NCBI GenBank assembly: GCA_965207065.1
Contig: OZ242260.1
Location: 1,376,001 to 1,440,000 of the forward strand
DNA length: 64,000 nt
Direction: 5' to 3'
From: a bacterium
GTDB lineage: Bacteria > UBA8248
Below the pieces are notes generated by a model. It was not told the DNA's origin and did not search any database. It saw nothing but the letters and a program-made list of their open reading frames with translations. The translations under genes and the position numbers were made by a program. Every line of letters begins with the position of its first letter. The stretch's first letter is position 1. Positions 36,754-53,895 of the stretch are shown here, piece by piece.

Positions 36754-36839
36754 TGGCGGAGGGAGAGGGATTCGAACCCCCGGAGCTTTCGCTCAGTGGT
36801 TTTCAAGACCACCGCCTTCGGCCGCTCGGCCATCCCTCC
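36754..36839 (-). tRNA. tRNA-Ser (anticodon TGA)
   Basis: GGAGGGATGGCCGAGCGG...GTGGT CTTGAAA ACCAC, long variable arm, GGTTCGAATCC, encoded CCA end. Confidence 0.95.
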
Positions 36840-38043: not shown

Positions 38044-38295
38044 ATGAGAAGTGGCGATGAAATGTTGAAACAGATTGTCGATAAGTCCGCCTTGGACGCA
38101 GATTTCAGGCAACAGCTGCTCGCAGACCCGAAATCGACCATCAGTCAGGAATTGGGCATCACGATCCCTGATTCGATGAATGTCGTGGTCCATGAGAGCG
38201 ACATGGAGACGGTGCATCTTGCGTTGCCCCCGGATCCGCATATCACCGAGGAGCAACTCGAAGCCGTCTCGGCCGGGCTTTGCTGCTGCTGGTAA
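38044..38295 (+). CDS. srpE: NHLP-leader (proteusin) RiPP precursor, core LCCCW
   Basis: DADFRQQLLADPK...HLALPP...ITEEQLEAVSAG|LCCCW; AG double-glycine-type cleavage site. Confidence 0.92.
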   Translation: MRSGDEMLKQIVDKSALDADFRQQLLADPKSTISQELGITIPDSMNVVVHESDMETVHLALPPDPHITEEQLEAVSAGLCCCW

Positions 38296-38418: not shown

Positions 38419-39537
38419 TTATATGGAGACCGCTCCGGAAAGCACCATGAACACATAGGCCTTGGCCTGCTTCAACTGATTTTCGGATATGACCAGCTTG
38501 ATGTGGTGAATGCCCCGCAGCAGTACGAATTGTCCGGTTTTGGCGAACAGCGTCGTCGGTTTCGATACCCAGTCGGCAAGCGCCTCGATCTTCTCCGGAA
38601 CGACAAGTTCCTCATGTCCCAGGGCTTCCAGAAACGGGTCCCAATCGGTCAGGCCGTCGAGCCAGTAACGTGAATCTTTCGTATATCTCTGCTTGACGAT
38701 GAGCGTCAGGCCGAGCGTCGGACCGACACCCTCTTCGCGCACGTCGAGGTTCGCTCCGGTTCTCACAATTTCCGCGCGTTCCTGGAAGCGTGAAATCAAA
38801 GCGTCTACGGCCGAGAGCCGACCCGGCCAGCCGATGTTCTCGAGATACGAACAGATTTCCCCCTGCGATTTGAAGCCCATGATCGCCAGGCGGATTGTGC
38901 GTTCACGGGACGGGAATACCCCGAACGAATCCAGGCGCGTGTCTTCGGGCTGCGCCAGGTAAACCCGTTCGGCGTTTTTCCGTTCAGCGGCGCTCTTTTC
39001 CCAGCCGACGGCGGAGACGAGGGCGTCAACCACGATCCCGACATCATTCTGGAGGCCGTCGCCACCGGACAGCGTGCGCTCACCGGGCCGCAGGAAGATT
39101 CCCGGCAGCGAATTATCACTGCCCGGCGCCGAACCTACGTCATACTCCAGCATCAATTTACGTCCCACGATCTCTCGCAGAGGCGAGTCCTGGGCTTCCA
39201 TTTCCCTGAACAGCCGCCTGACCGCTCTCGCGGTCTCATCCGTCTCGTCGGTCCGCGCCAGTTCTTCGAAAAAATCGCCCGAGCGGTTTCCGCTCGCCAG
39301 CGAGACGCCGAAATCCGCCACCGGCCGGCCCTCATGCAGAGGCAGCTCGAAACCGAACGGCTGGGCGCCCATGGTGATGGGAAGCCCGCTCGCGAGTTCG
39401 AGTATGCGTCCCCATTCCCGCTCTCCGATAAGAGTCGGAGAAATCCTGCTTCGAAATTGCCCGAGCAAATCTCCCATGGTGCCGCCCTCTTCGGCGAGGC
39501 GGTCCTGGGTAAGCGCGACTGCTTCGTCGATATCCAT
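38419..39537 (-). CDS. Hypothetical RiPP maturase, putative ABBA-type aromatic prenyltransferase
   Basis: FGFELPL..ADF, MLEYDV, SRERTIRL, NLDV, HHIKL...AKAY pattern; last gene of the maturase operon. Function inferred. Confidence 0.5.
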   Translation of the reverse strand: MDIDEAVALTQDRLAEEGGTMGDLLGQFRSRISPTLIGEREWGRILELASGLPITMGAQPFGFELPLHEGRPVADFGVSLASGNRSGDFFEELARTDETDETARAVRRLFREMEAQDSPLREIVGRKLMLEYDVGSAPGSDNSLPGIFLRPGERTLSGGDGLQNDVGIVVDALVSAVGWEKSAAERKNAERVYLAQPEDTRLDSFGVFPSRERTIRLAIMGFKSQGEICSYLENIGWPGRLSAVDALISRFQERAEIVRTGANLDVREEGVGPTLGLTLIVKQRYTKDSRYWLDGLTDWDPFLEALGHEELVVPEKIEALADWVSKPTTLFAKTGQFVLLRGIHHIKLVISENQLKQAKAYVFMVLSGAVSI

Positions 39538-39546
39538 GTTGCCTCC

Positions 39547-41865
39547 TTACGCGATTACAGGCGCGGGGTTCAAATCGGCTTCGGCCAGGGGGTGCTTGCG
39601 GCGGCCCATGTCGAGGGGTGCGTCGTACAGGCGCCCGGGCGCGAATCTCGCCCAGAAATGGCGCATGCCCGGTACGATGACCCGCGCAACCGGCATGCCG
39701 ATGTCCGGCCGGGTCTGGTCCAGCACGAGGAACTCCATGCCCTTGGCTTCCACCAGCGCCCGGCAATGTTCCACATCCTCAAGAGTGTCCGCAGTTTCGA
39801 TCTCCGGATACTCCGGGCCTTGCCTGAGCGGCGCGTCCGGCGTCGGCGACAGCCAGGAACAATCGGCGATTCGAGCCGTCTTCCACCAGTTGAGCGCCAG
39901 CGGATCGTCGATCATGGGCCGGCCGTCGCCCCCTCCGGGACGCGGCAGCCAGGTAAGGCACTGGTTCAACTCGCAAACCGCGCGCAGGGCCGCCAGCCGC
40001 GGGTCGGCATGCGCGCCGGCGCCGTATATGATGTCCTCGGTTTCCGCGTCTAGTCTGCGCGAGAGCGCGACGAACGCGGGAATGCCGATGTCGGAAGTAA
40101 CGTCGAGCATCCACACTTCCCGCTCGTAGCGGGCGTAATAATCCGCGGCCGACGCAAGGAATTCGTCGTCGAAGCTGAGAAGATCAACCCCGGGCGCTCT
40201 CAGTTCGTTGTACCACCAGATGGCGAACGCATCGCGCTCGACCAGTTCATAGAAGCCTTGCAGGATGGCCTCCTCCAGGGTGTTCCCTGCGGCGCAGCCG
40301 TTGGAGTCGGCGATCAGTTCGGCGTCTCCGCGCTGTTCGGCGGACATGCTGTAGAGCATCGACGTCGGCAGATAGCGGTGCCGCCGCTGCGTGAACGACC
40401 ACACCGGGGTCCAGTCGATTTCGGCACCGGGTTCGAGACGCGGCGGGACGATGTTGTACGGGTGGCCTTTCGCGTTGATGCTTTCCGCGTTGTCTAGCTG
40501 GTCCTCGCTGAACAGCTGCGCATCGTTGGGATGGATCGCCCCGTCTTCCGCGGCGAAGTCGATGAACCGCTTGCGGATGCGGATCTCGTCTCCGCAACAG
40601 GCGCCCGAATAACGCTCGATCGCCTCGCAGAGGGCGCTGGCCTCGGATTGCGCCCGCGTGCTGCCCTTGCCGGCGCTCTTGCTGCGGAGGCTGCGCCTGA
40701 GCGAACTCAGGCTCCGGCTTCTCATGGCGGGATTGCTTCCGGCCCAGTAGACGTGCAGCCAGGAGTCGCTCTCATCGGTCGTGCGCGCCAGCCAGGTGAC
40801 GACGCCGCTGATCGGGCTTACCAGGTGGCGGTATTTCGCCAGTGTGGCTTCCGGCGTCACGGCCCGCGCGCCGCCGCTGTTGCGATGGACTTTGGGGCTC
40901 GCACTCAGACTCAGCGGCGCCGGCGGTCGATCCGGCCGGTAGAGCGCCTCGTCGCCACAGGCCGCACACTGCGGGCGGCGCATCACCGAATGATGCGAGC
41001 TTGCGAACGTGGCGACATTCATCGCAATCGCCTTATCGTGAATCGGGGCCGCATCGTCCAGCACCAGCCATTTGACGATCTCCGCCGCGACCAGGCCGTA
41101 CAGCGCCTCCAGCACCGCGGGCTCGGCGGCGAACGGCTTGAAGGCGGCTTCCTCACCGACAAAGCTGCGCAGGAAGTTGTGGGTCTCCTTATGGCAGCGC
41201 AGGCGGTAGGCCAGGCACTCCCGGCAGGGTCCTTGCTCATCCGCGCGGAAGACGGGGCCGAACAGCGCCTCCATGCCGCGCGGCCGCACCAGCATCCACG
41301 GCGCTCCCGCCTCGAGCCGGCGCCGATTCACGTCGGCAAGCCGTGCGTCGAGATAGTCGTCGCAGACGACAACCGTGAGCCGGGGGTCGCCGCTCGCCAC
41401 ACCGGCGCCGATTTCTGCCAGGCGCCGGGCGAGGCGGCCGTCGTCGCCTTCGACCGCGACCCGCGACTCCGCCAGCCGCCCTTCGGCCCAGCGGGGCGAT
41501 GCGCCGAGCGAGGCCCAGTAGGCCGCCCGGGGTCGGTCCATGCCGTGATCGGCGGAGACGACATAGCCCCTGGCGGAGAGCGAAACCACGGCCGCGAGAA
41601 CGTCGGCGGCGGCATGGCGGCCCTCGAGGGCGGCGGCAATCCCGGCCAGCGGGCGCCGGCCGCCCAGAAGCGGCAGCAGAGCGGGATACAGGCCGCCGTG
41701 CAGCAGCGTATCGAACGACTCGGACACCAGCAGGGTCTGCCCTTCGCCGATTTCGTGGAACTGCAGGTGCGGGGTGAGCGCGGGGAACTCGACGAGGCCC
41801 TGGTCCGCCGGGGTCGTTTTGGTCAATATCCCGCGTCGGGGAGTCGTCTTGGTCTGTGGTGACAT
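39547..41865 (-). CDS. srpC: Fused leader-binding/E1-like + YcaO cyclodehydratase (TOMM type)
   Basis: GPVF..GPCRECL, RRPQCAACG, SAGKG, EAIERY, SNGCAAG, ELVERDA, Pro-rich C-terminus LNPAPV. Confidence 0.93.
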   Translation of the reverse strand: MSPQTKTTPRRGILTKTTPADQGLVEFPALTPHLQFHEIGEGQTLLVSESFDTLLHGGLYPALLPLLGGRRPLAGIAAALEGRHAAADVLAAVVSLSARGYVVSADHGMDRPRAAYWASLGASPRWAEGRLAESRVAVEGDDGRLARRLAEIGAGVASGDPRLTVVVCDDYLDARLADVNRRRLEAGAPWMLVRPRGMEALFGPVFRADEQGPCRECLAYRLRCHKETHNFLRSFVGEEAAFKPFAAEPAVLEALYGLVAAEIVKWLVLDDAAPIHDKAIAMNVATFASSHHSVMRRPQCAACGDEALYRPDRPPAPLSLSASPKVHRNSGGARAVTPEATLAKYRHLVSPISGVVTWLARTTDESDSWLHVYWAGSNPAMRSRSLSSLRRSLRSKSAGKGSTRAQSEASALCEAIERYSGACCGDEIRIRKRFIDFAAEDGAIHPNDAQLFSEDQLDNAESINAKGHPYNIVPPRLEPGAEIDWTPVWSFTQRRHRYLPTSMLYSMSAEQRGDAELIADSNGCAAGNTLEEAILQGFYELVERDAFAIWWYNELRAPGVDLLSFDDEFLASAADYYARYEREVWMLDVTSDIGIPAFVALSRRLDAETEDIIYGAGAHADPRLAALRAVCELNQCLTWLPRPGGGDGRPMIDDPLALNWWKTARIADCSWLSPTPDAPLRQGPEYPEIETADTLEDVEHCRALVEAKGMEFLVLDQTRPDIGMPVARVIVPGMRHFWARFAPGRLYDAPLDMGRRKHPLAEADLNPAPVIA

Positions 41866-41898
41866 GCGGGAATCCTGCGTCTGCCCGGTCGGCGCTTT

Positions 41899-44261
41899 TT
41901 ATGCGCGCGAAACGAGCGTATCGATCCGGGCGGCGGCGCTGGATGCGGTCTCGGCGACCGCCGACGCCAGCGCATCGAAATCCTCCTGACCGCAAGCGTC
42001 CGCAAGGAGTGATTTGACCTTCGGCCCTGCCGCCGCCGCGTCGAATCCCTCTTCGCCGACAAGACGCATGACCCCCTGTAAGTCCCGCCACATGGCCGCG
42101 GCTTGCGCCAGCGGCTCGGCGCCGGATCGTCGAGGCCGTTTCCGGCGCGCGTCAACTGCAGGTAGCGCGCGGCCCTCTCGACATCGTCCAGCCCGCCGCG
42201 CATCCGGGCGTATGCGGGCACGCCCGTTTCGGCGGGGTCTTCGGTCCGCTCGCTCAACCGGGCGAGCAAGGATTCGTCCGCGGCGCATTCGGCCAGTATC
42301 CGGCGCCGCGCCTCCTCGTAGCGGCCGGCGACATCGGAACCGCCATACTCGAAGGCGCAACGCGCCCTGGTGAGAGCGGGAACCTCACCTGAAGTCGAAT
42401 TTCCGGAATGCCCGGCCAGCTCGGAAAGCGGCAGCGCAAGAATGGTATTCGAGCCGGGCGGGACCGGGGAGAACAACAGGCTGTCCTGCGACAGGTCGGA
42501 CAGAGCCTCTTGGAAACTACGGCACACCTGCTCGTTTTTGCCGGACCGCAGGCCGTCGTGGAGGATCAGCATATCGATTCCGACGCCGGGATATGCTTCG
42601 CGGCTGGCCAGATCGCCCAGGAGAACGGCGGCGACTCCATCCACGCTCAGCATCCCGAAGCGGTCGACATAATCCGCGACCACGGAGGCGAGCACGGTCG
42701 AGATCGACGCTTCGGCGAGATTCGAGAGCGCCGTTCTCGCTTCCGCCGGCAACAGGTTACCGCGCATCACGTGCATACCGATCTGAAACGCCTTGTCGTT
42801 CGACCAGTTTCGCACGATTTCAGCGGTTTCCCTCGCATCGGCCACCGGCAGTTCGGCGACCAGACCCTTCAATTCCCCAACGTCCATCTCGTAAGTCCAG
42901 TAGACTCTCGCCAGCCCGCGCCGCGCTATCGATTCGTATTCCTCATCCGGCCCGAACCCTTTCGGCAGGTCGAGGTCGAGGAATTCCTGGTCCTGCAGGT
43001 TGTCCAGAAGTTCCGGGTTCCGCTCAATCCGTTTCGCAAGCCTCGGGGCGGCGCCGAAGATTTCGAGTATCGCGTCGAATGCGTCGGGCCGCGCCGCGGC
43101 GATCGGGCTGTCGTAGGGGCCCCAGTCGTCAATCTCCGGATAGAAATGCTTGCGCCACTGGTCCACCAGCGGGTCCATCTTCTCGAACCAGCGCTTGGGC
43201 CGCAGCACGATGTTCATCATGTCGGCGTAGGTTCCCGGCAACTCCGGCGACTCATCGAGGCCGCTGACCTGCAGCAGCGGATACTGGCGCGACGCCACCG
43301 CATGATGGTCCGCATGGCGCTGCATATTGAAAAACATCCAGTTGCTGAACTTCCAGTCGGCGCTCCAGGAATGGCGCGGCATCGCCTTTTCCCAGCGGCC
43401 GTTGTCCAGACGGACCCGGCGCAGGCCGTAGTGTTGAAAGTAGTTGCTCATCTTCATCGAAAAGACGCAGGACAGACCGAGGAAGACGAAGACGGGAACG
43501 GCCCAGATTCCGCCCATCCAGTAAACCAGTCCGTACCAGAACGCGACGCCGACGCCGTAGCGCCAGAACGGATTGTCGTAATGCCACATGGGCAAACGCC
43601 GCCGCGCCAGGCGTTCTCTTGCGACTTCCCAGGAATGGACGAGGTTGCTGACGACTTCCTTGGGGAAATATTTCCAGAAACTTTCCCCCTTCGGAGCGGA
43701 ACCCACGTCATACGGCGTGCCGACCAGGGCATGGTGAATATAGACGTGTTCCGTGGCGTATTGCGGATAGGAGACGGTGGCGAGCAGGAATTCGCCCACC
43801 CGGCGCTCCCAGGTCGTGCGCCGGTGAATCATTTCGTGGCCGACTACGAATACGGCTTGCGCTTCCATCGTCAGGATGATCGCCAGGAGCACGCCTTCCC
43901 AGATGGAGAATTGATCCGCCGCCAGGATTTGCCACATACCGAAAATGAGCGTCGGCGGCCACAGAAACGACCACGACCAGACCGGCAGATTGTGCCAGAA
44001 CAGGCGGTGCTCCGACGTATTCGCCGGGTCCATGTTTTGTCCGTCCCGACCCAGCGCCCTATCGAGCGACCCCGCAACACTCATAAAGACGAGCGGCGGC
44101 AGCAACCACCAGCCTCCATTGTACACGCCGAGAAGAATCAGCGGAAAAACAACCAGTGGCAGATAATGCGGAAGGGCGGTCAGAATGGAAGGCTCGATAG
44201 GCCGAGTGGCGTCAGCGTTGCCTGGGCCGGAGCCACCACTTGCAACCGGACTTTGTGGCAT
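41899..44261 (-). CDS. AlkB-like membrane diiron monooxygenase/desaturase fused to degenerate GlnE-like domain; frameshift near 42120
   Basis: HEMIHR, EHVYIHH, NYFQHYG, QRHADHH His boxes. C-terminal LLGDLASRE..DMLILHD and RGGLDDVERAARYLQL. The tail continues in the frame of ORF 41899-42360. Confidence 0.8.
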
Positions 44262-44343
44262 GTCAGCTCCTCAACAGTGGGCATATTGAAACCCTTGAAC
44301 CGGAGGCAATTTTATCCTCGAATCCATGAACCTGCAAGGATTT

Positions 44344-45645
44344 TCAGGCTTTCAGGATTGCGAGGAGACGCTCGAGGGCTTCGATGCAGAACGCGGTTGT
44401 CACGGCTTCGGAGCCATGTCCAATCCGCCCTACCGTGCCCCACTTCAGGGTTTGGTCGCCGAACGCGAGGAGTTCGGGCCAGCTGCCGTCCTCGCGTTGC
44501 GAACCCGTGAACCTTTCCACCTCGCGTTTCGCGTCGATTCTATCGAGGCATCCGACATGGTGGAGCGCCGAGGCGGCCTGAGCCGATTGAAGGATGTTGC
44601 CGAACCCCCCCTCCTCGTCCCGCAAGCCCAGGATGCGCTCCGCAAGTACCGGGCGCAGCCGGTCGAGGGCGGGCCGTGCGCGATTCACGGCGCGGGCGGT
44701 CGCATAGCAGATAGCGACCTCGTCGGGATACCATTTCGACGACCCCTCGAGATTGCCTTCGGTTATCAAGGCTTCCAGCCATCGCCGGGCATCCCTGGTT
44801 TCTGGGCAGTCGCCGAGATAGGCGATGACGTTCGCATTGACCACGGGGTCGGCTTCGATACGGAAGCGCGATACGACATCGGGTTCGTCGTCTTCGAGAA
44901 CCCAGGTCATGAAGCGGCCTTCCTCGTCGCGATTCGCCAGTATCTGCGGAACGTTCCGCCCCATCAGAATCCAGGGGTGGCCTCCAATCACGAGTGAACA
45001 CAGCGCGGTGCTGTCGAGATCCTGGGGCAGATGGCGGTAATAGCGCCACAATCCGGGATATTCGATGGTTTCGGCGAGATACGCCTCGGTCGCGGCGCAG
45101 ATGGCCCTGGCGCGCGCTTCCTCGCAACATTCCAGGGCGAGGACGCAGAAAGCCGATACGAAAGGAGGTTTCTCGAAATGCCGCGGTATGTCCGGGTCGC
45201 CTACGTTGAACCGGATGCAGCGCCAGGCGCCGTTTTCGTCTATGGCGGATTCCAGGAAATCGAGACCGCGGCGGATGCTTTCCCTGCCCGCTTTCGCAAG
45301 CGCTTCGGTGGTCGCCGCGCTCTTCGGGACTCTCTCCCCTTGAAGTTTTGGAGGACGAAGGGGCGGCGCGGGGTCGTGCATCGTTTTGCGAAGAAACTCG
45401 ATCGATGCCGCGCCGGTTTTCGCCTCCTCCCGTTCCGCCTCGGTGAATTTGCTGCGCGGCGGGAGGACGAGGTGCGTCGCGGTGTAGGTTTCTTCGTGCA
45501 CGTGAATCTCATGGTCTTCGGCCATCGTAACGCCCAATTCCGCTTCGATGGTCTCTTTGGGCCTGGCGAGAAGACGTTCTCTAAAGTCGTAGTCGCCGCC
45601 GGCTCGCGATATCAGGAAATCGGCAGCGTCAAAGGGCTTCTTCAT
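44344..45645 (-). CDS. NHLP-leader-like domain fused to class II terpene cyclase / prenyltransferase-squalene-oxidase-repeat domain
   Basis: N-terminal DYDFRERLLARPKETIEAELG...HLVLPP...FTEAERE; then DENGAW, PQDLDSTA (DxDDTA-like), DPVVNANV, QREDGSW. Confidence 0.75.
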   Translation of the reverse strand: MKKPFDAADFLISRAGGDYDFRERLLARPKETIEAELGVTMAEDHEIHVHEETYTATHLVLPPRSKFTEAEREEAKTGAASIEFLRKTMHDPAPPLRPPKLQGERVPKSAATTEALAKAGRESIRRGLDFLESAIDENGAWRCIRFNVGDPDIPRHFEKPPFVSAFCVLALECCEEARARAICAATEAYLAETIEYPGLWRYYRHLPQDLDSTALCSLVIGGHPWILMGRNVPQILANRDEEGRFMTWVLEDDEPDVVSRFRIEADPVVNANVIAYLGDCPETRDARRWLEALITEGNLEGSSKWYPDEVAICYATARAVNRARPALDRLRPVLAERILGLRDEEGGFGNILQSAQAASALHHVGCLDRIDAKREVERFTGSQREDGSWPELLAFGDQTLKWGTVGRIGHGSEAVTTAFCIEALERLLAILKA

Positions 45646-45719
45646 GGATGTCTTCTCCATTTTCGCGGGCCTTGGCCGAACGTGCATTTTACCGCCGGGC
45701 TGCTGTCTGCATATTCTGG

Positions 45720-48662
45720 TCAGGCGATTTGCCTTTTGATCAACTCCTTGAATACCCCGTCGACCTCCTTGAGTTCGTTGAAGGTACCGCTTTGAACGAC
45801 TTTTCCGCCTTGCAGCACGTAGATGCGGTCGGCCTGTTCCAGCGTGGACAGGCGGTGGGCGATGATGAGCCGGGTGGAAGTCAGGTCGGCAAGGTTCCGC
45901 ATTACCTTGGCCTGGCTTTCGTTGTCCAGCCAGTTCGTCGCCTCGTCAAGCAGCATGATTCGCGGGCTGCCGATCACCGAGCGGGCGATCGTGATGCGCT
46001 GACTCTCGCCGCCCGAGAGGACGGACCCGCTGGCGCCCACCATCGTCATCATGCCCATGGGCATGTCCCTGATTTGGGCTTCGACTTCGGCGGTCCGGGT
46101 CGCCGCCCACACTTCCTCGGTCCCCACCGCATCATGGTGGCTGACCAGATTGTCCCAGAGATCTTGTGGATGGAGTCCAACGGATTGCGGCACCGCTCCA
46201 ATTTTCCGGCGCACCTGTTTCAGATTCAGGTGCCTCAGGTCGCGTCCGTCGTAATACACCGCACCGGCGGCCGGCCAGTCGATGCCGAGCGCGAGCCGGA
46301 ACAGGGTGCTCTTGCCGGCGCCGGACTCACCGGCAATCGCGATGAATTCGCCGGGACGGGCGTGAATCGTGACGTCGTCGAGGATCAACGGACCGTCGGG
46401 ATCGTAGCGGAAGGAAATGCGGTCGAACAGTATTTCACCGCCCAGGAATTCAACCGGCTCTCCTTCCGTCACGGTTTCAGGAACGGCGGAGAGAAGCGGG
46501 CGCATCTGCTCGAACGCCGGCCGCATGGCGGCAATGGCGCCGAAGGACTCGCCGAGCCGGGCGATGGCGGACTGGAAAACGATAAAGACCGTGTAAACGA
46601 CGAGAAAATCGCCGACCGGTATGTCCCGGTCTCCCGTCGCCGCCACCGCGAAAAGCAGAACCCCGCCGGCAAAAAAGGGAAGCGCGGCGCCGAATGCCCG
46701 CGAATGTCCCTCAAGCGCGCCCAGTTCAATCTCTGCGCGTTTCTGCTCGCGATAATCCCTCGCCCAGATGGCATAGGCCGACCCTTCCGCATTATCCATT
46801 CGCAGCTTGGAGATGCCTCCCACGAGCTGGAACAGCCGACCGGCTACACGCCGCGCCGCGCTGATCATCCGCCCATAAGGTGAAATCTGGCGCAACCCGA
46901 GGACTACGGCGACCAGCAGCGAAGCCAGGCTGAAGACGAGGGTGATGAGGCCGAGGGTGGCGTCGTAGAAGAAAATGACGCCAAAAACCGGAAGCAGAAA
47001 AATAATCGACAAAAAGCTGTTGGCGACGATTCCCCGCAAGCCGTCGCGAAGGTTCTGGAACGTCATCCCCGACATTGCCAGATCTCCGGCGGGATGGCGG
47101 TGCAGAATGCTTGACGGAAGGCGCATGAGACGGTCCCAGAAGGCGGCTTCGACCCGGGAAGCCGAGCGCCCCTCGAGCCGCATCATCGCCGTGCTTTGGA
47201 ACAGTTGCAGGAGAGCGCCGAGCAGACCGAACGCCGCTAACGCCACGGCGACGGTATAGAGCGTTCCTGTGCTTCCGCCCGCTAAAATTTCATTCGCAAC
47301 GAATCCGAGCGCGAGCGCCGGCAGCAGCTTGATCATGCCGTATGGAAGCCCGGCAATGACCAGACGCGCCAAATCCGCGGCCGACCCGCGCAGGGCGATT
47401 CTTAGCAGGTCTGCCAGTTTCACGTTCTCCGGCGGCAATGGCCGATAGAACATCCAGGCTTCTCCCTCCAGCGCGCCCGCGCGGTCCGCCGTGACCCGGC
47501 GGCTGCGTTTGCTGACCGGGTCGATTTCCCGGTATCGCCCGAACATTCCCGGCAACAGCGCCACTGGCTGGCCGTCCTCGGCGCGGAACGCCAGCATCGC
47601 GTTGCTGTCGCCGCGCCACCAGCTGCCCTCGGCTTTGAACCGCACGCGCCGGGCGCGTAAGCCCGACGCATCGAGAACCTCGACGAGGCCGACCGGAGAA
47701 TCGGAAAGTCCCGCACGCGCCGGAATCTTGAAATCGATTCCTTCATGGCGGCCGATGAGTTGCAGGGCATCCGCCAGCGCCGTGTCCTCGACACTGGCGT
47801 CCCGGTCGATCGGAAGGTCATAGATGTTGAACAGCCGCTGCCGCGCGGCTTTTTCCGCCGTGCGGCGGCTGGTAGTCCGCGCGCGTTCGAGATTGACGTC
47901 ATCGACCACGACCAGTCGGCGGTTCAGGCGTTCCAGGGAAAAAGCAACCGCGTGAAAAGAGGCGAGCGCCGGCAGCAGCGTGCCTTGCTCCGCCAGGGTT
48001 TCGGTTGATAAGCCCGTCAGCGTCGCTTCGTCGAACAAGGCGAGCCAGCTTGTGCGCGTCAGCGGAATAACGGCGTCGTGCGGGCCGCTCGCCTCCGCCA
48101 GTTCCGCCGGGTCGACGATACCCATGAACAGGCTCGCGCCGCGCGGCGGTTCGGATACCCATACCACGCCGCGCCGTACGGATAGCGTACAAGGGGCCAG
48201 GGTCTGCGTCCGACCGGGTTCGGCCAGCGCGGTCGGGCGCGGAAGGGGGCTTGCGAAACGGGACAGTGTTTCAGCAATGGCGATCAGCCAGGTATCGGTC
48301 TGTTCCGCCAGTTCCGCCGGATGGACCCGGGACAGCAGGGAAGCCGGCAGACGTTTCAAAATGGTGCCCGGCAGTCCTTTGGCGATGATGCTGAGCGTAT
48401 TGTCTTCGTCACCCTCTCGCTGGTCCGGCGACACGCCCGGCAGCAGCCAGCCCGACTCCCGGCGCAGCAGATGCTGCGGCGCCGCCTGCTCCACCCCGTC
48501 CTTGAGTTCGGCGAGGAACAGATTGACGGCGCCCTGATCGATGAACCAGACGCTGTCCGGGTCGTCGAGCTTGACCGGCAGGTTGCCGGCGCAGGGTACG
48601 GACGCGCCGAAGCGAGCGGCGAGTTCGGCGATGGACGTGTATTCCGGCTTTGTGTGCTGCAT
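45720..48662 (-). CDS. NHLP bacteriocin export ABC transporter permease/ATPase
   Basis: LDASGLRARRV, GESGAGKST, LSGGESQR, LDEAT, IAHRLST. Confidence 0.9.
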   Translation of the reverse strand: MQHTKPEYTSIAELAARFGASVPCAGNLPVKLDDPDSVWFIDQGAVNLFLAELKDGVEQAAPQHLLRRESGWLLPGVSPDQREGDEDNTLSIIAKGLPGTILKRLPASLLSRVHPAELAEQTDTWLIAIAETLSRFASPLPRPTALAEPGRTQTLAPCTLSVRRGVVWVSEPPRGASLFMGIVDPAELAEASGPHDAVIPLTRTSWLALFDEATLTGLSTETLAEQGTLLPALASFHAVAFSLERLNRRLVVVDDVNLERARTTSRRTAEKAARQRLFNIYDLPIDRDASVEDTALADALQLIGRHEGIDFKIPARAGLSDSPVGLVEVLDASGLRARRVRFKAEGSWWRGDSNAMLAFRAEDGQPVALLPGMFGRYREIDPVSKRSRRVTADRAGALEGEAWMFYRPLPPENVKLADLLRIALRGSAADLARLVIAGLPYGMIKLLPALALGFVANEILAGGSTGTLYTVAVALAAFGLLGALLQLFQSTAMMRLEGRSASRVEAAFWDRLMRLPSSILHRHPAGDLAMSGMTFQNLRDGLRGIVANSFLSIIFLLPVFGVIFFYDATLGLITLVFSLASLLVAVVLGLRQISPYGRMISAARRVAGRLFQLVGGISKLRMDNAEGSAYAIWARDYREQKRAEIELGALEGHSRAFGAALPFFAGGVLLFAVAATGDRDIPVGDFLVVYTVFIVFQSAIARLGESFGAIAAMRPAFEQMRPLLSAVPETVTEGEPVEFLGGEILFDRISFRYDPDGPLILDDVTIHARPGEFIAIAGESGAGKSTLFRLALGIDWPAAGAVYYDGRDLRHLNLKQVRRKIGAVPQSVGLHPQDLWDNLVSHHDAVGTEEVWAATRTAEVEAQIRDMPMGMMTMVGASGSVLSGGESQRITIARSVIGSPRIMLLDEATNWLDNESQAKVMRNLADLTSTRLIIAHRLSTLEQADRIYVLQGGKVVQSGTFNELKEVDGVFKELIKRQIA

Positions 48663-50872
48663 CAGCCCGACCTGACCAGCTTGTAGTACGCACCGTCCCG
48701 ATCCGCGATCAACTCGTCGTGGGTGCCGCGTTGCACGGTGACGCCTTTGTCGAGCACGATAATTTCATCGCAATCCCGCACGGTGCTCAGCCGGTGCGCC
48801 ACGATCAGGCAGGTGACGCCGCGCCGCCGCAGGGCTTCATCGACTAGTTCCTCCGTTACGGCATCGAGTGCGCTGGTGGCCTCGTCCAGAATGAGCACCG
48901 TCGGATTGCCCACCAGCGCACGGGCGATTTCCAGGCGTTGCTGCTGGCCGCCGCTGAAATTCGCGCCGCCTTCTTCGACGAGGGTCGAGTACCCTTGCGT
49001 TCGAAGCAGGATTTCGTCATGGATTTGGGCATCCCGTGTGGCGGCGAAGAGGACTTCATCCGGGACGGCCGGGTTCCACAACGTGATGTTGTCGCGCAGG
49101 GACGCGGAAAAGAGCACGATCTCCTGGTCCACCATGGATATGGACTGCCGCAGCACTTCCTCTGGAATCTGATCCCGCAGATGATCATCAAACAGGATTT
49201 CGCCCGACCAGGGCGGATAGACACCCGATACCAGCCGCGCCAGTGTCGACTTGCCGGAACCGCTTGGACCGACCACGGCAACGCGCTGCCCCGGCTTGAT
49301 CACGAGGTTGAAGTCCTTTATCAAAGGTGGCCGGCTCTTGTTGAAACCGAAGGTGAGGTTTCGCAGTTCGAGCTGGCCTGCAAGCTGGAGCCGACCGTTG
49401 AACGTGGGGATTGACTCCGGTTCCGGATTTCGGCGACTGAAAACGGGGTCTTCATCGGTTTTGGAGATGTCCTCGAGACGTTGCATATCGGTTTCGAGCG
49501 CCTGGCGGTTTTCGGCAAACTCCAAAAAACGCCTGACGGGGGCCAGAAACATCTCGGCCAGGATGTAGAACCCGACCAGCGTCCCCAGGGTCATTTCTCC
49601 GGTCATGACCAAACCGCCCCCGATGCCGAGAATCGCCGCGCTGCGGAGCGCGTCGACCAGCCCCGGAAGCGAGGTGCTGATGGAGCCCAGTTCGGAATAG
49701 AGCTGGCGCGCACGCAACTCACGCGCCTGTTGACCGCTCCAGCGCGAAAAGAAACGGTCATCCGATCCCGTCATGCGCAGATTGTCGGAATGACTCAGCA
49801 TCTGCATGCCGAGGCCGATCAGCAGTCCCTGCTCGCGCCTCATCGCCTGGCTTCGGACAGCCCGAAGGGCGTTGAGAAAGTGGGCTAGCATTCCGTGCAG
49901 AAGGGCCAGCAAAAGCACGATCAGCGTGAGCAGGATATCGTAGGCGAACATCGCCATGAGCAACACCACGCTCATCGCCATGTCGATAATGAGAACCAGA
50001 AACTGGTCCGCCAGATTCCTGGCGATTCTGTCGGTGGACGAGACCCGGTCGGTCAGGTCGCCCGCCAGTCTGTGTTCGAAAAACTCCACCGGCAACCGCA
50101 GCAGACGTGACACGCTGCGACTGAAGCCAATCACCGATACCCGGACGGCGAGCCGCTTGAGGAATCGGTGCTTGAACAGGGACAGGACGTATACCAGGAG
50201 GCCGCCGCCGAGCAAGGCGGTCACCAATCCGCCCCAGGATCCGTGTTTTTCGATGACATCGTCGACGAAAACACCGAGAGATGCGGGAATAATCAACGTC
50301 AATAGCGTCAGCATGAGTCCGCAGGCAATCACCCCGGTAAGCAAATTCCATGATCCGGCGAGCAGGGCGCCCAATTGCCTGAACAAGTCGGGCCGCTCGC
50401 CCCCGGGCTTGAAATCAGCGCCGCGCTTGAAGCGAAGCGCAATGCCGCTGTAGTCCTTGTAGAACTCTTCGGCGGAAATCCTGCGCCGCCCCGTGGAAGG
50501 GTCATTGAGATGGAAATGACGGCCATCGAATCCATCGAGGACGACGAAATGGCTGAATTGCCAGAACAGAATCAAAGGCAACTGCAGCATTTTCAGTTGA
50601 TCGGCGCGTGCGCTGAGCCCGCTGCATTCGAGGCCATAGTGTCGGGAGGCGCGCAAGATGCTTGCGGCGCTGCTGCCGTCCCGGCTCACCTCGCATTTTT
50701 CGCGCAATTCGGTAAGCGGCACCCATCGCCCGAAGTAGGCCAGTACGATGCCGAGACAGGCGGCGCCGCATTCCGACGCGTGCATCTGCAACAGAATCGG
50801 TGTGGTCACCTTCCGTTTCGATACGTCCGAAGAGGCCTTGTCCCCGGCGTCTTTGGAAGCGGCCGTCGGCAT
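48662..50872 (-). CDS. NHLP bacteriocin export ABC transporter with C39 peptidase domain
   Basis: QMHASECGAACL, HFVV, LNDP catalytic motifs; GPSGSGKST, FSGGQQQR. Confidence 0.93.
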   Translation of the reverse strand: MPTAASKDAGDKASSDVSKRKVTTPILLQMHASECGAACLGIVLAYFGRWVPLTELREKCEVSRDGSSAASILRASRHYGLECSGLSARADQLKMLQLPLILFWQFSHFVVLDGFDGRHFHLNDPSTGRRRISAEEFYKDYSGIALRFKRGADFKPGGERPDLFRQLGALLAGSWNLLTGVIACGLMLTLLTLIIPASLGVFVDDVIEKHGSWGGLVTALLGGGLLVYVLSLFKHRFLKRLAVRVSVIGFSRSVSRLLRLPVEFFEHRLAGDLTDRVSSTDRIARNLADQFLVLIIDMAMSVVLLMAMFAYDILLTLIVLLLALLHGMLAHFLNALRAVRSQAMRREQGLLIGLGMQMLSHSDNLRMTGSDDRFFSRWSGQQARELRARQLYSELGSISTSLPGLVDALRSAAILGIGGGLVMTGEMTLGTLVGFYILAEMFLAPVRRFLEFAENRQALETDMQRLEDISKTDEDPVFSRRNPEPESIPTFNGRLQLAGQLELRNLTFGFNKSRPPLIKDFNLVIKPGQRVAVVGPSGSGKSTLARLVSGVYPPWSGEILFDDHLRDQIPEEVLRQSISMVDQEIVLFSASLRDNITLWNPAVPDEVLFAATRDAQIHDEILLRTQGYSTLVEEGGANFSGGQQQRLEIARALVGNPTVLILDEATSALDAVTEELVDEALRRRGVTCLIVAHRLSTVRDCDEIIVLDKGVTVQRGTHDELIADRDGAYYKLVRSG

Positions 50873-50873
50873 C

Positions 50874-51425
50874 TTATGATCGCCTCATTCGAAACAGCGT
50901 GATCGGAGATTGCCTGCCGAGCTCGATGACGAACCGGCATTTCCTGCCCTTCAGGGAATCCGAATCCACACTTTCTTCGAGCGCGATATCGACGCGGAGC
51001 AGGGACACCGGCGCCGCGGACTCAAACGCCGCCTGCCCCCCGGAGAAAGGCACGGCGGAAATCGCCCTGACCTTTCCGGCAAGCGCGCCTGTTTTTCCGT
51101 CCGCCGTATCCGGCTCTATCACCACCGGCATCCCGGCCTCGATACGTGGAGCGATATCGCTGTCGACCCAGACGAGGGCCCGCACGGACCGGCCGCCCCC
51201 GGGCGAGTTTTCGCCTTGCTCGACCACTACGCCGTCCACCGCGAGACTACGGGCCACGCTGCCAAAGAAGAGCCATGCACAGAGGATGCACAGAACAAGA
51301 GCGATTGCGGCGACAAGCAGACGCTCCCGCGGCGTTGAAATCGTCAGCAACCGGTCGAGTTGCTCGCGTTCTTCCTTCGCTTCGGCGACAATATTATGAA
51401 AAGAATCGAATGGATTATTGAACAC
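50874..51425 (-). CDS. Short NHLP secretion (HlyD-like) accessory protein
   Basis: EQLDRLLTISTPRE + TM helix, C-terminal QSPITL; much shorter than a typical membrane fusion protein. Confidence 0.65.
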   Translation of the reverse strand: MFNNPFDSFHNIVAEAKEEREQLDRLLTISTPRERLLVAAIALVLCILCAWLFFGSVARSLAVDGVVVEQGENSPGGGRSVRALVWVDSDIAPRIEAGMPVVIEPDTADGKTGALAGKVRAISAVPFSGGQAAFESAAPVSLLRVDIALEESVDSDSLKGRKCRFVIELGRQSPITLFRMRRS

Positions 51426-53508: not shown

Positions 53509-53895
53509 TTATTCGGGGCGCAGCAGGCTTTTGGCCTTATCCCCTTCCGGCGTCACGGCCAGCACCTCGAGACTCGGCCGCGCGGGGCTCCTCGTGAGGA
53601 GGAGTTCCACGGGCTCGTCGAGCGCCATGATCTCGTGCACCTCGCCGGGGCGGAACTGCACCAGATCCCCCGGCGCGGCTTCCAGAATCTCTCCTTCCAC
53701 GGCGATGCGGAGCCCGCCCTTCAGGAGATAGAGGAACTGCTCGTCATGGTGATAATGCGGGTTGGAATGGCCCCTCGCCTCCATGCGGAAATATCCGATG
53801 GTGGTGTGAGCGCCATCGACCCACGCGGCGTCTGCGGTCACGTAGTCGGCGGCCTTTCCCTGGTTCTGAGCGGCGAGATTTCTGTAAATCGGCAT
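53509..53895 (-). CDS. Cupin domain protein
   Basis: HSNPHYHHDEQFLYLLKG, PGDLVQFRPGEVH. Confidence 0.85.
   Translation of the reverse strand: MPIYRNLAAQNQGKAADYVTADAAWVDGAHTTIGYFRMEARGHSNPHYHHDEQFLYLLKGGLRIAVEGEILEAAPGDLVQFRPGEVHEIMALDEPVELLLTRSPARPSLEVLAVTPEGDKAKSLLRPE

Follow-up and report, generated by a model that had tools for sequence, protein, structure and literature searches.

An NHLP-leader-like domain fused to a predicted class II terpene cyclase in an srp-type proteusin cluster

The subject of this study is a gene in a 64,000-nt stretch of bacterial DNA from contig OZ242260.1 (assembly GCA_965207065.1); this stretch is referred to as the window, and all coordinates are window positions. 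The gene lies on the minus strand at 44344-45645, within a cluster for a peptide made by the ribosome and modified after translation (RiPP), and it joins a domain resembling the leader of NHLP-type precursor peptides to a domain of the class II terpene-cyclase type. A preliminary description of the locus had proposed that the leader-like part is a pseudo-leader, which docks the cyclase onto the enzymes or the C39 transporter that normally recognise the leader of the precursor. The parts of the gene are as follows.

44344-45645, minus strand: fusion gene, 433 aa (open reading frame call and homologue alignment)
45412-45645, minus strand: aa 1-78, NHLP-leader-like domain (precursor alignment, TIGR03793, 8TB1 and AlphaFold2 model)
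45301-45411, minus strand: aa 79-115, linker (alignment of fusions)
44347-45300, minus strand: aa 116-433, predicted single-domain class II terpene-cyclase-type alpha/alpha barrel (family profile, AlphaFold2 and Foldseek)
45007-45021, minus strand: aa 209-213, DLDST motif (motif position and AsDMS alignment)
44479-44499, minus strand: aa 383-389, QREDGSW, a QW-type motif (Q383, G387 and W389 invariant)

The fusion gene and its leader-like domain

The open frame extends from 44344 to 45687 on the minus strand and would encode 447 aa. Because 74 of 81 aligned fusion homologues begin at the Met encoded at 45645, and because a GGAG sequence lies 10-13 nt upstream of it, the true product is, by this alignment, the 433-aa form starting at 45645 and not the 447-aa frame; the gene limits given in the preliminary description are thus the right ones. 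An AlphaFold2 (AF2) model of the whole fusion protein has a mean predicted local distance difference test score (pLDDT) of 85.3 and a predicted template modelling score (pTM) of 0.79. Mean pairwise identity among the fusions is 0.70 for residues 1-78, 0.58 for residues 79-115 and 0.79 for the cyclase domain, and by this comparison with linker and cyclase the N-terminal domain is under purifying selection. The linker falls into two parts: in aa 79-97, 53% of the columns are at least 95% conserved, compared to 50% in the catalytic domain, and this stretch is kept in relatives down to 58% identity and also in three shorter, probably partial, relatives at 40-51% identity; aa 98-115, on the other hand, are variable among the fusions. 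In one public record a homologue of the fusion is named 'nitrile hydratase subunit alpha'.

It had been considered that the fusion might be an assembly artefact, with precursor and cyclase being separate genes in homologous loci; this was not found. By a word-indexed protein search there are at least 120 homologues of full length, 431-466 aa long and 76-97% identical (120 listed of 1089 matches), and in a scan of one genome per species, relatives are encoded in 457 stretches. The locus counts given here and below refer to the best 80 of these 457 stretches, many of them cut by contig ends, with a gene being counted if the match covers more than half of the query. The fused open reading frame is present at full length in 80 of these 80 loci, at 71-91% identity. 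Their record titles are those of metagenome-assembled genomes (MAGs) from at least eight phyla, with seven titled only 'bacterium'; they include Nitrospirota, Nitrospinota, Alpha- and Gammaproteobacteria, 'Deltaproteobacteria'/Thermodesulfobacteriota, Binatia, Acidobacteriota (Bryobacterales, Vicinamibacteria), Gemmatimonadota and Latescibacterota. In addition, a DNA contig from a public sponge-metagenome run spans positions 44000-45861. In one sponge metatranscriptome all 30 bins are covered by contigs with a likeness of at least 85%, although contigs cannot prove transcription, and one RNA-Seq run contains a 176-nt identical piece.

Further away in sequence, the architecture changes. In an exhaustive search of representative sequences the N-terminal domain is kept in only three full-length representatives (71, 58 and 63% identity), while many distant cyclase relatives (30-47% identity) either stand alone, at about 300-340 aa, or are joined to other partners, namely P450, DUF2332, sulfotransferase, GDSL lipase or a Trp_DMAT-like region. 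As the close homologues are fused while the distant relatives stand alone or have other partners, the fusion is, judged from these alignments, a clade-specific natural event and not an assembly artefact. A metagenome scan for the nearest stand-alone cyclase gave one locus, at 26% identity, and a look-up of the clusters of ten relatives gave no informative names.

The parallel between the first 78 residues and the precursor leader, which the preliminary description had drawn by eye, is clear from BLASTP: residues 11-78 of the fusion align without gaps with residues 11-78 of the 83-aa precursor encoded in the same cluster, with 27 of 68 positions identical (E 3e-16). The corresponding profile search is less clear-cut. 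TIGR03793 (leader_NHLP) matches residues 25-84 of the 447-aa form over model positions 9-69 of 77 with E 6.5e-11, but the match, at 41.9 bits, falls short of the curated cut-off (50.9), whereas the true precursor scores 69.2 bits. Pfam NHase_alpha also matches the domain (E 2.2e-5), and the domain alone is matched by the solved NHLP leader 8TB1 at E 1.1e-5 and by nitrile hydratase alpha chains at about 1e-5. In the AF2 model the domain consists of helices at residues 4-17, 19-27 and 29-37 and strands at 48-53 and 56-60, followed by a Pro-Pro pair and a short helix, with low pLDDT for aa 41-80. A column-by-column comparison of 81 fusions with 63 precursors shows 20 columns within residues 11-78 that are more than 80% conserved with an identical residue in both groups; among them are F21, R22, L25, L26, P29, V49, H50, E51, H58, L61, P62, P63 and G78. 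From these shared columns and the predicted secondary structure, the folded NHLP nucleus (related to nitrile hydratase alpha, with three helices, a beta-hairpin and a Pro-rich stop) appears to be retained.

The fusion domain thus resembles the leaders of SrpE and MprE7 (8TB1) in its length, in the order of its secondary structure elements and in its core residues. Where it departs from them, besides its score under the TIGR03793 cut-off, is in the residues next to the cleavage site. The fusions have a disrupted L(X)4L motif: Arg stands at position 72 (-7) in 79 of 81, compared to Leu or Met in 63 of 63 precursors, and Ala at position 75 (-4) in 81 of 81, compared to Ile or Val in 63 of 63; position 67 is Phe, Leu or Tyr in fusions and Ile, Met or Leu in precursors. 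The preliminary description had stated that the Ala-Gly cleavage site and the core are both missing, which is correct for the core, since Gly78 is followed by a 355-aa enzyme with no Cys/Trp core, and mostly correct for position 77 (-2), which is Thr in 65 of 81 fusions; however, Gly78, aligned with the cleavage-site Gly of the precursor, is invariant (81/81), and Ala still occupies position 77 in 8 of 81. With the recognition residues at -4 and -7 and the core lost, the domain would not be a leader of the substrate type.

A second region of leader recognition has also changed. Five positions of helix alpha-1 in MprE7 that contact the YcaO enzyme map to positions 6, 9, 10, 13 and 16 of the fusion, by way of the 8TB1 alignment and with a 4-residue tag offset assumed, and at none of them do precursors and fusions have the same consensus residue; position 10, where the top residue reaches 30%, is the column of the domain with the lowest conservation. 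As for its origin, the domain is about equally similar (38-39%) to the srp precursor and to an unrelated second NHLP precursor of the same genome, so that these identities do not demonstrate that it arose by recent duplication of the srp precursor. In mirror-tree analysis with partial Mantel tests, the N-terminal domain was compared with each cluster protein, and gave no signal with the leader of the precursor (partial r -0.13). The partial r was 0.38 for the N-terminal part of subunit 2 of the ABC exporter; since correlations across the cluster track gene adjacency, this value is explained by linkage rather than by co-evolution of the two.

The pseudo-leader also carries a cluster of His residues, H45 (78/81), H48 (65/81), H50 and H58 (both 81/81), together with E51/E52, of which the precursors retain only the histidines H50 and H58; a metal site at aa 45-58 is conceivable from this pattern.

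The cyclase domain and a predicted prenyltransferase in the same cluster

Both motifs named in the preliminary description, DLDST at aa 209-213 and QxxDGSW as QREDGSW at aa 383-389, are present, and its assignment to the class II terpene cyclases agrees with our family-level comparisons. A profile built from 63 sequences of the family matches the class II domain of the drimenol synthase AsDMS with E 3.4e-28 over 279 positions, and also finds squalene-hopene cyclases, AstC, SsDMS and MstE (MstE at E 3.8e-5). Foldseek searches with the AF2 model returned AsDMS (E 4e-12), 6IJ1 (4e-9), MstE (5e-9) and squalene-hopene cyclase (5e-6), with small myxobacterial cyclases also among the matches. Asp211 of the DLDST motif aligns with the catalytic Asp333 of AsDMS, in DLD(333)TT, which is the residue changed in the D333N crystal entries. 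D209, L210, D211 and S212 are invariant in 81 of 81 fusions, and 90 columns of the cyclase domain are invariant among these sequences. In the wider family the motif is mostly DLDDT; the last Asp of DxDD is replaced by Ser in the srp-type fusions and by Thr in AsDMS. As DLDS is found in 81 of 81 fusions, the Ser is a fixed feature of the srp-type clade as sampled in our alignment, and the example of AsDMS indicates that Thr at this position is compatible with an active enzyme. We therefore regard aa 116-433, as modelled, as a class II terpene-cyclase-type domain with a conserved catalytic Asp, for which cyclisation activity is predicted. Like MstE (6SBB-6SBG) and AsDMS (9MHS, 9M7D-F), it would have an alpha/alpha barrel, the Asp of DxD(T/S/D) and a QW-type motif; unlike the fusion, MstE and AsDMS act on free meroterpenoid or farnesyl diphosphate (FPP) substrates and have no leader-like domain, and AsDMS instead has an N-terminal HAD phosphatase domain.

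The other genes of the cluster are as follows.

38044-38295, plus strand: SrpE-type NHLP precursor of 83 aa; Ala-Gly closes the leader, and the core is LCCCW
38419-39537, minus strand: 372-aa protein with a predicted ABBA prenyltransferase fold
39547-41865, minus strand: YcaO cyclodehydratase with a leader-binding N-terminal part, SrpC type
41823-44261, minus strand: membrane fatty-acid-desaturase-type domain plus GlnE-like nucleotidyltransferase region, a conserved cluster member
45720-48662, minus strand: ABC subunit 2 of the NHLP-type exporter, immediately upstream of the fusion gene (gap of 74 nt)
48662-50872, minus strand: NHLP-type exporter ABC subunit 1 with C39 peptidase domain
50874-51425, minus strand: short HlyD-type secretion protein, 183 aa
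51858-53150, minus strand: SrpI-type flavin-dependent tryptophan halogenase

The precursor gene is 252 bp long and encodes the core LCCCW, ending in a C-terminal Trp. A 252-bp precursor gene with an LCCCW core is also given for the sponge srp cluster, and there the YcaO enzyme SrpC forms three thiazolines and SrpI acts as a Trp-6-brominase on the C-terminal Trp (accessible parts of bioRxiv 10.1101/2023.06.09.544420 and PMC10286304). On the strength of this match, with the YcaO (E 4.7e-91) and Trp_halogenase (E 6.5e-44) matched at the family level, the cluster in the window is, by sequence, the published srp proteusin cluster. The fusion gene is probably 'SrpA' of this cluster, judged from gene order; if so, by the same gene-order fit SrpB would be the desaturase protein and SrpD the 372-aa protein.

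Neither Pfam nor NCBIfam gives a family match for the 372-aa protein. Language-model features give leads to prenyltransferases, weak ones by the tool's own measure. In a Foldseek search with its AF2 model, every listed match is an ABBA aromatic or peptide prenyltransferase (E 2.9e-5 to 1.1e-3), including NphB/Orf2, EpzP, PriB, 5- and 6-DMATS, IptA, CymD, PagF and PatF. When aligned by hhalign with the N-terminal halves of seven proteins of 648-698 aa, which carry a cyclase-type domain C-terminally and one of which has a weak Trp_DMAT match, the family of the 372-aa protein gives a probability of 95.2% and E 2.4e-8 over 234 columns; a BLASTP comparison of the 372-aa protein with a single prenyltransferase-cyclase fusion gave nothing significant (E 0.86). 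Language-model leads, fold prediction and profile homology together thus point to the 372-aa protein as a predicted prenyltransferase.

This homology to the N-terminal half of prenyltransferase-cyclase fusions makes the pair of 372-aa protein and cyclase resemble NctPC. According to the accessible text of PMC13290415, in NctPC an ABBA prenyltransferase and an MstE-like cyclase form one protein, which transfers geranylgeranyl to a Trp of a ribosomal peptide before it cyclises the attached chain; PalQ prenylates the C-terminal Trp of another NHLP precursor (PMC10853753, accessible text). As in NctPC, a predicted ABBA-type prenyltransferase and a predicted single-domain class II cyclase occur together, and the terminal Trp of the core in the window is a candidate acceptor. 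Unlike in NctPC, the two parts are separate genes (38419-39537 and 44344-45645) with the YcaO and desaturase genes between them, and the cyclase bears an NHLP-leader-like domain instead of the prenyltransferase. In the NctPC study of Hubrich (2024), the substrate was reportedly a cyanobacterial proteusin, and such units are said to be predicted from genomes in proteusin, Nif11 and lasso families.

Proposed role and alternatives

We suggest, with a probability of about 50%, that this gene provides the terpene cyclase for the srp proteusin pathway of sponge symbionts, that it works together with the 372-aa prenyltransferase, and that its N-terminal domain serves as an adaptor. By analogy with NctPC, the 372-aa enzyme would place a C15-C20 isoprenoid on the C-terminal Trp of the core, after which Asp211 would protonate the prenyl chain and the cyclase domain would cyclise it, with the leader still attached during both steps; the mature product would be a brominated, thiazoline-bearing peptide with a cyclic terpene. 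The NHLP nucleus would be an adaptor between proteins; it would keep the stand-alone cyclase within the maturation assembly, and so replace the covalent link between prenyltransferase and cyclase in NctPC-type enzymes. Because a cyclase that is untied from its prenyltransferase must otherwise reach a five-residue core, the retained nucleus is an obvious candidate for such an adaptor; its partner may be the leader-binding domain of the YcaO enzyme, the prenyltransferase, or the precursor's own leader. We further speculate, quite tentatively, that the pseudo-leader takes the second leader site of a dimeric YcaO, or a leader-nucleus site on the prenyltransferase, with the real precursor in the first site, resulting in a heteromeric machine around the five-residue core.

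Leader elements have been attached to RiPP enzymes before. LctM-leader and LynD-leader are laboratory fusions in which the leader activates its own enzyme, and in borosins such as OphMA the enzyme and core are on one chain. Common to all of these and to the fusion described here is a RiPP tailoring enzyme to which a leader or core part is covalently joined; the fusion differs from the LctM- and LynD-leader constructs in being natural, and from the borosins in that the enzyme carries a leader element and not a core. For the terpene-cyclase class we know of no leader site. If recruitment by the pseudo-leader is true, it would be the natural counterpart of the engineered leader-enzyme fusions, and could represent a general assembly principle for RiPPs with large leaders.

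Several points weigh against our proposal. For the cyclase domain, Pfam SQHop_cyclase_C matches at E 0.002, under the cut-off, and a single-sequence search of the domain against PDB sequences gave 0 matches; as the Pfam support is weak, the assignment rests on the family profile and the fold search. The AF2 model of the 372-aa protein is of medium confidence (pLDDT 75.3, 16 similar sequences), and its Foldseek template modelling scores are 0.4-0.55. None of the seven proteins of 648-698 aa has an informative name, three being annotated just as 'hypothetical protein', and it is by their architecture that they would be equivalent to NctPC. No prenyl-diphosphate synthase was found in the window by Pfam searches of 32 flanking open reading frames (E<=1e-5), 4 bordering ones (E<=0.001) and the 9 cluster proteins (E<=0.01), and biochemical data on the fusion or the 372-aa protein were not found in the literature searched. 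Finally, the binding partner of the N-terminal domain is still only a candidate, and an adaptor does not explain the invariant Gly78 and the conserved stretch behind it.

Another reading is an intramolecular role, in which NHLP-like nucleus and linker pack on the cyclase as a lid, pseudo-substrate or cap, with no external partner. Linker residues 79-97, conserved like the catalytic domain and persisting in the more distant and shorter relatives described above, would fit such packing, as would the pTM of 0.79 for the whole protein; other single-domain class II cyclases also have N-terminal additions, HAD in AsDMS and prenyltransferase in NctPC. However, there are stand-alone relatives of 300-340 aa that lack such a domain, and the barrel thus needs no N-terminal domain to fold. 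We believe that an intramolecular role is possible, though doubtful.

Mimicry of the leader in its canonical sense, where the pseudo-leader would fill the sites of the precursor leader on YcaO, brominase or C39 and so assemble or activate them, is the form in which the preliminary description had put its docking proposal. The 40% gapless identity to the precursor leader, with equal numbering up to the cleavage-site Gly, is in line with this, and the accessible text of PMC12455567 describes YcaO dimers with two leader sites, in which the leader on one monomer feeds the active site in the partner monomer; the srp YcaO alone is poorly active and not purifiable (accessible text of PMC10286304), which would fit a missing partner. 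However, in the accessible parts of PMC10858898 and PMC12455567, SrpI binding is located entirely in L(X)4L, that is Leu67 and Leu72 of SrpE (positions -12 and -7), and binding of the YcaO enzyme MprC in L(X)4L plus helix alpha-1; both Leu residues are required for bromination by SrpI, and the Ala mutants are also unprocessed by MprC. C39 binding has likewise been compared to L(X)4L, by way of the LahT crystal structure (PMC10858898) and a modelled complex (PMC12715784), both in their accessible parts. The fusion has Arg at the second Leu position and Ala at -4, and at none of the five mapped alpha-1 positions does it share the consensus residue of the precursors. As the motif needed by both brominase and YcaO is lost, canonical mimicry is unlikely, and docking of the cyclase as a leader mimic is unsupported as it had been stated. 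Docking of the nucleus by another surface, dimerisation with the precursor, which the preliminary description had also raised, or an intramolecular role are possible; surfaces other than L(X)4L do bind folded leader nuclei in the YcaO leader-binding domain, in LanM and in the ABBA prenyltransferase MppC (accessible text of PMC12455567 and PMC12715784).

The barrel could also act on no peptide-bound isoprenoid at all, by cyclising a free prenyl diphosphate as AsDMS does, or by serving as a non-catalytic binding module. The family profile is indeed far closer to the FPP-cyclising AsDMS than to MstE, but a leader-derived domain would have no obvious use on such a cyclase, and relatives are fused to a prenyltransferase-like domain, the known enzyme of this kind cyclising after transfer to Trp as far as its accessible description goes. 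The invariant catalytic Asp and 90 other invariant columns also speak against this reading. We consider such a role of the barrel improbable. It is most improbable that Thr77-Gly78 serves as an export or cleavage signal for the C39 domain, with the cyclase released or exported by the NHLP transporter: although Gly78 is invariant at the position of the cleavage Gly, position 77 is Thr or Ala in 73 of 81 fusions and, of 36 loci carrying all genes, 34 have this gene directly downstream of those for the exporter, -4 and -7 are Ala and Arg and not the hydrophobic residues that double-glycine peptidases use there, and a folded cargo of 355 aa would be unusual for this class of transporter.

To place the proposed adaptor and terpene chemistry in context, the srp cluster (2021) and peptide-bound terpene cyclisation (2024) are already known. 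New is the reading of the orphan 372-aa protein as a predicted ABBA-fold prenyltransferase with homology to the N-terminal halves of prenyltransferase-cyclase proteins; neither this assignment nor an NHLP-like domain on a cyclase is described in the literature searched, with the founding srp and NctPC papers and their supplements outside it. The srp cluster is described as among the most widely shared and most highly transcribed in sponge microbiomes, with final product and role unknown (accessible text of bioRxiv 10.1101/2023.06.09.544420), and a 2025 survey still lists 'several genes of unknown function' in it (PMC11832590). Reading two of the srp genes as prenyltransferase and cyclase predicts a brominated thiazoline peptide with a cyclic terpene, and thus a concrete mass to seek; it may also help to explain why reconstitution with YcaO and brominase gave only a partly modified peptide (PMC10286304, accessible text). 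Recognition of folded NHLP leaders is under active study (PMC10858898, PMC12455567, PMC12537861), and a leader-derived domain on a tailoring enzyme would be a natural test case for how large leaders of this type are recognised; it could also give a portable tag for assembling RiPP enzymes.

Organisation of the cluster and further observations

Of the 80 loci, 72 encode the 372-aa protein, 71 the YcaO enzyme and 63 the desaturase protein; 59 have the C39 exporter, 56 the second exporter, 51 the HlyD-type protein and 46 the halogenase. A true precursor (more than 70% identity) is found in 62 loci; the other 18 'precursor' matches are the N-terminus of the fusion itself. Distance correlations track adjacency, with r of 0.62-0.92 among the exporters and the fusion, 0.88-0.93 among the parts of the YcaO enzyme and 0.63 between precursor and 372-aa protein; one YcaO segment gave no value in one of the runs. 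By these pairwise distances the cluster is a mosaic of three linkage blocks (exporters and fusion; YcaO; 372-aa gene and precursor), which suggests recombination between cluster variants.

The arrangement varies in some loci. In the Nitrospira-type loci L003, L005-L007 and L009-L011 the halogenase lies directly upstream of the fusion gene, and there are no exporter genes in the fetched stretch, save for a short fragment in L010. Two copies of the cluster, separated by about 2 Mb, lie on one MAG contig (L001, L002); the second has no adjacent C39 exporter and halogenase. In the window, one edge of the cluster is marked by a tRNA-Ser (TGA) at 36754-36839 on the minus strand, 1.2 kb from the precursor gene, and the other by a cupin gene at 53509-53895; the flanks consist of unremarkable genes for transport and catabolism. 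Such an arrangement is consistent with an island that was inserted beside a tRNA, in line with the spread of the cluster across phyla.

As to individual neighbours, the desaturase reading frame at 41823-44261 has 812 codons, and its desaturase part is of the fatty-acid-desaturase/AlkB di-iron type. Azoline dehydrogenase families of the SagB/McbC type had no match among the nine cluster proteins at E<=0.01. The HlyD-type protein covers only positions 6-57 of the 421-position TIGR03794 model; as the full-length 183-aa form is kept in 51 of 80 loci, its shortness does not come from truncation at this locus. In ABC subunit 2, the first 290 aa (47793-48662, minus strand) lie outside the TIGR03797 model and have no Pfam match, and language-model features for them give a weak lead (0.84) to a cNMP-binding domain.

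The second NHLP precursor of this genome, at L082 6192-6551 on the plus strand (C1:726191-726550), looks like an orphan: no YcaO gene was found in the 7 neighbouring open reading frames scanned. It has an intact L(X)4L motif, an Ala-Gly site and an 18-aa core rich in Ser and Asn, and it adjoins a 364-aa protein of no Pfam family. Two weaker NHLP/NHase-like matches fall in a 274-aa frame at C1:834542-834937.

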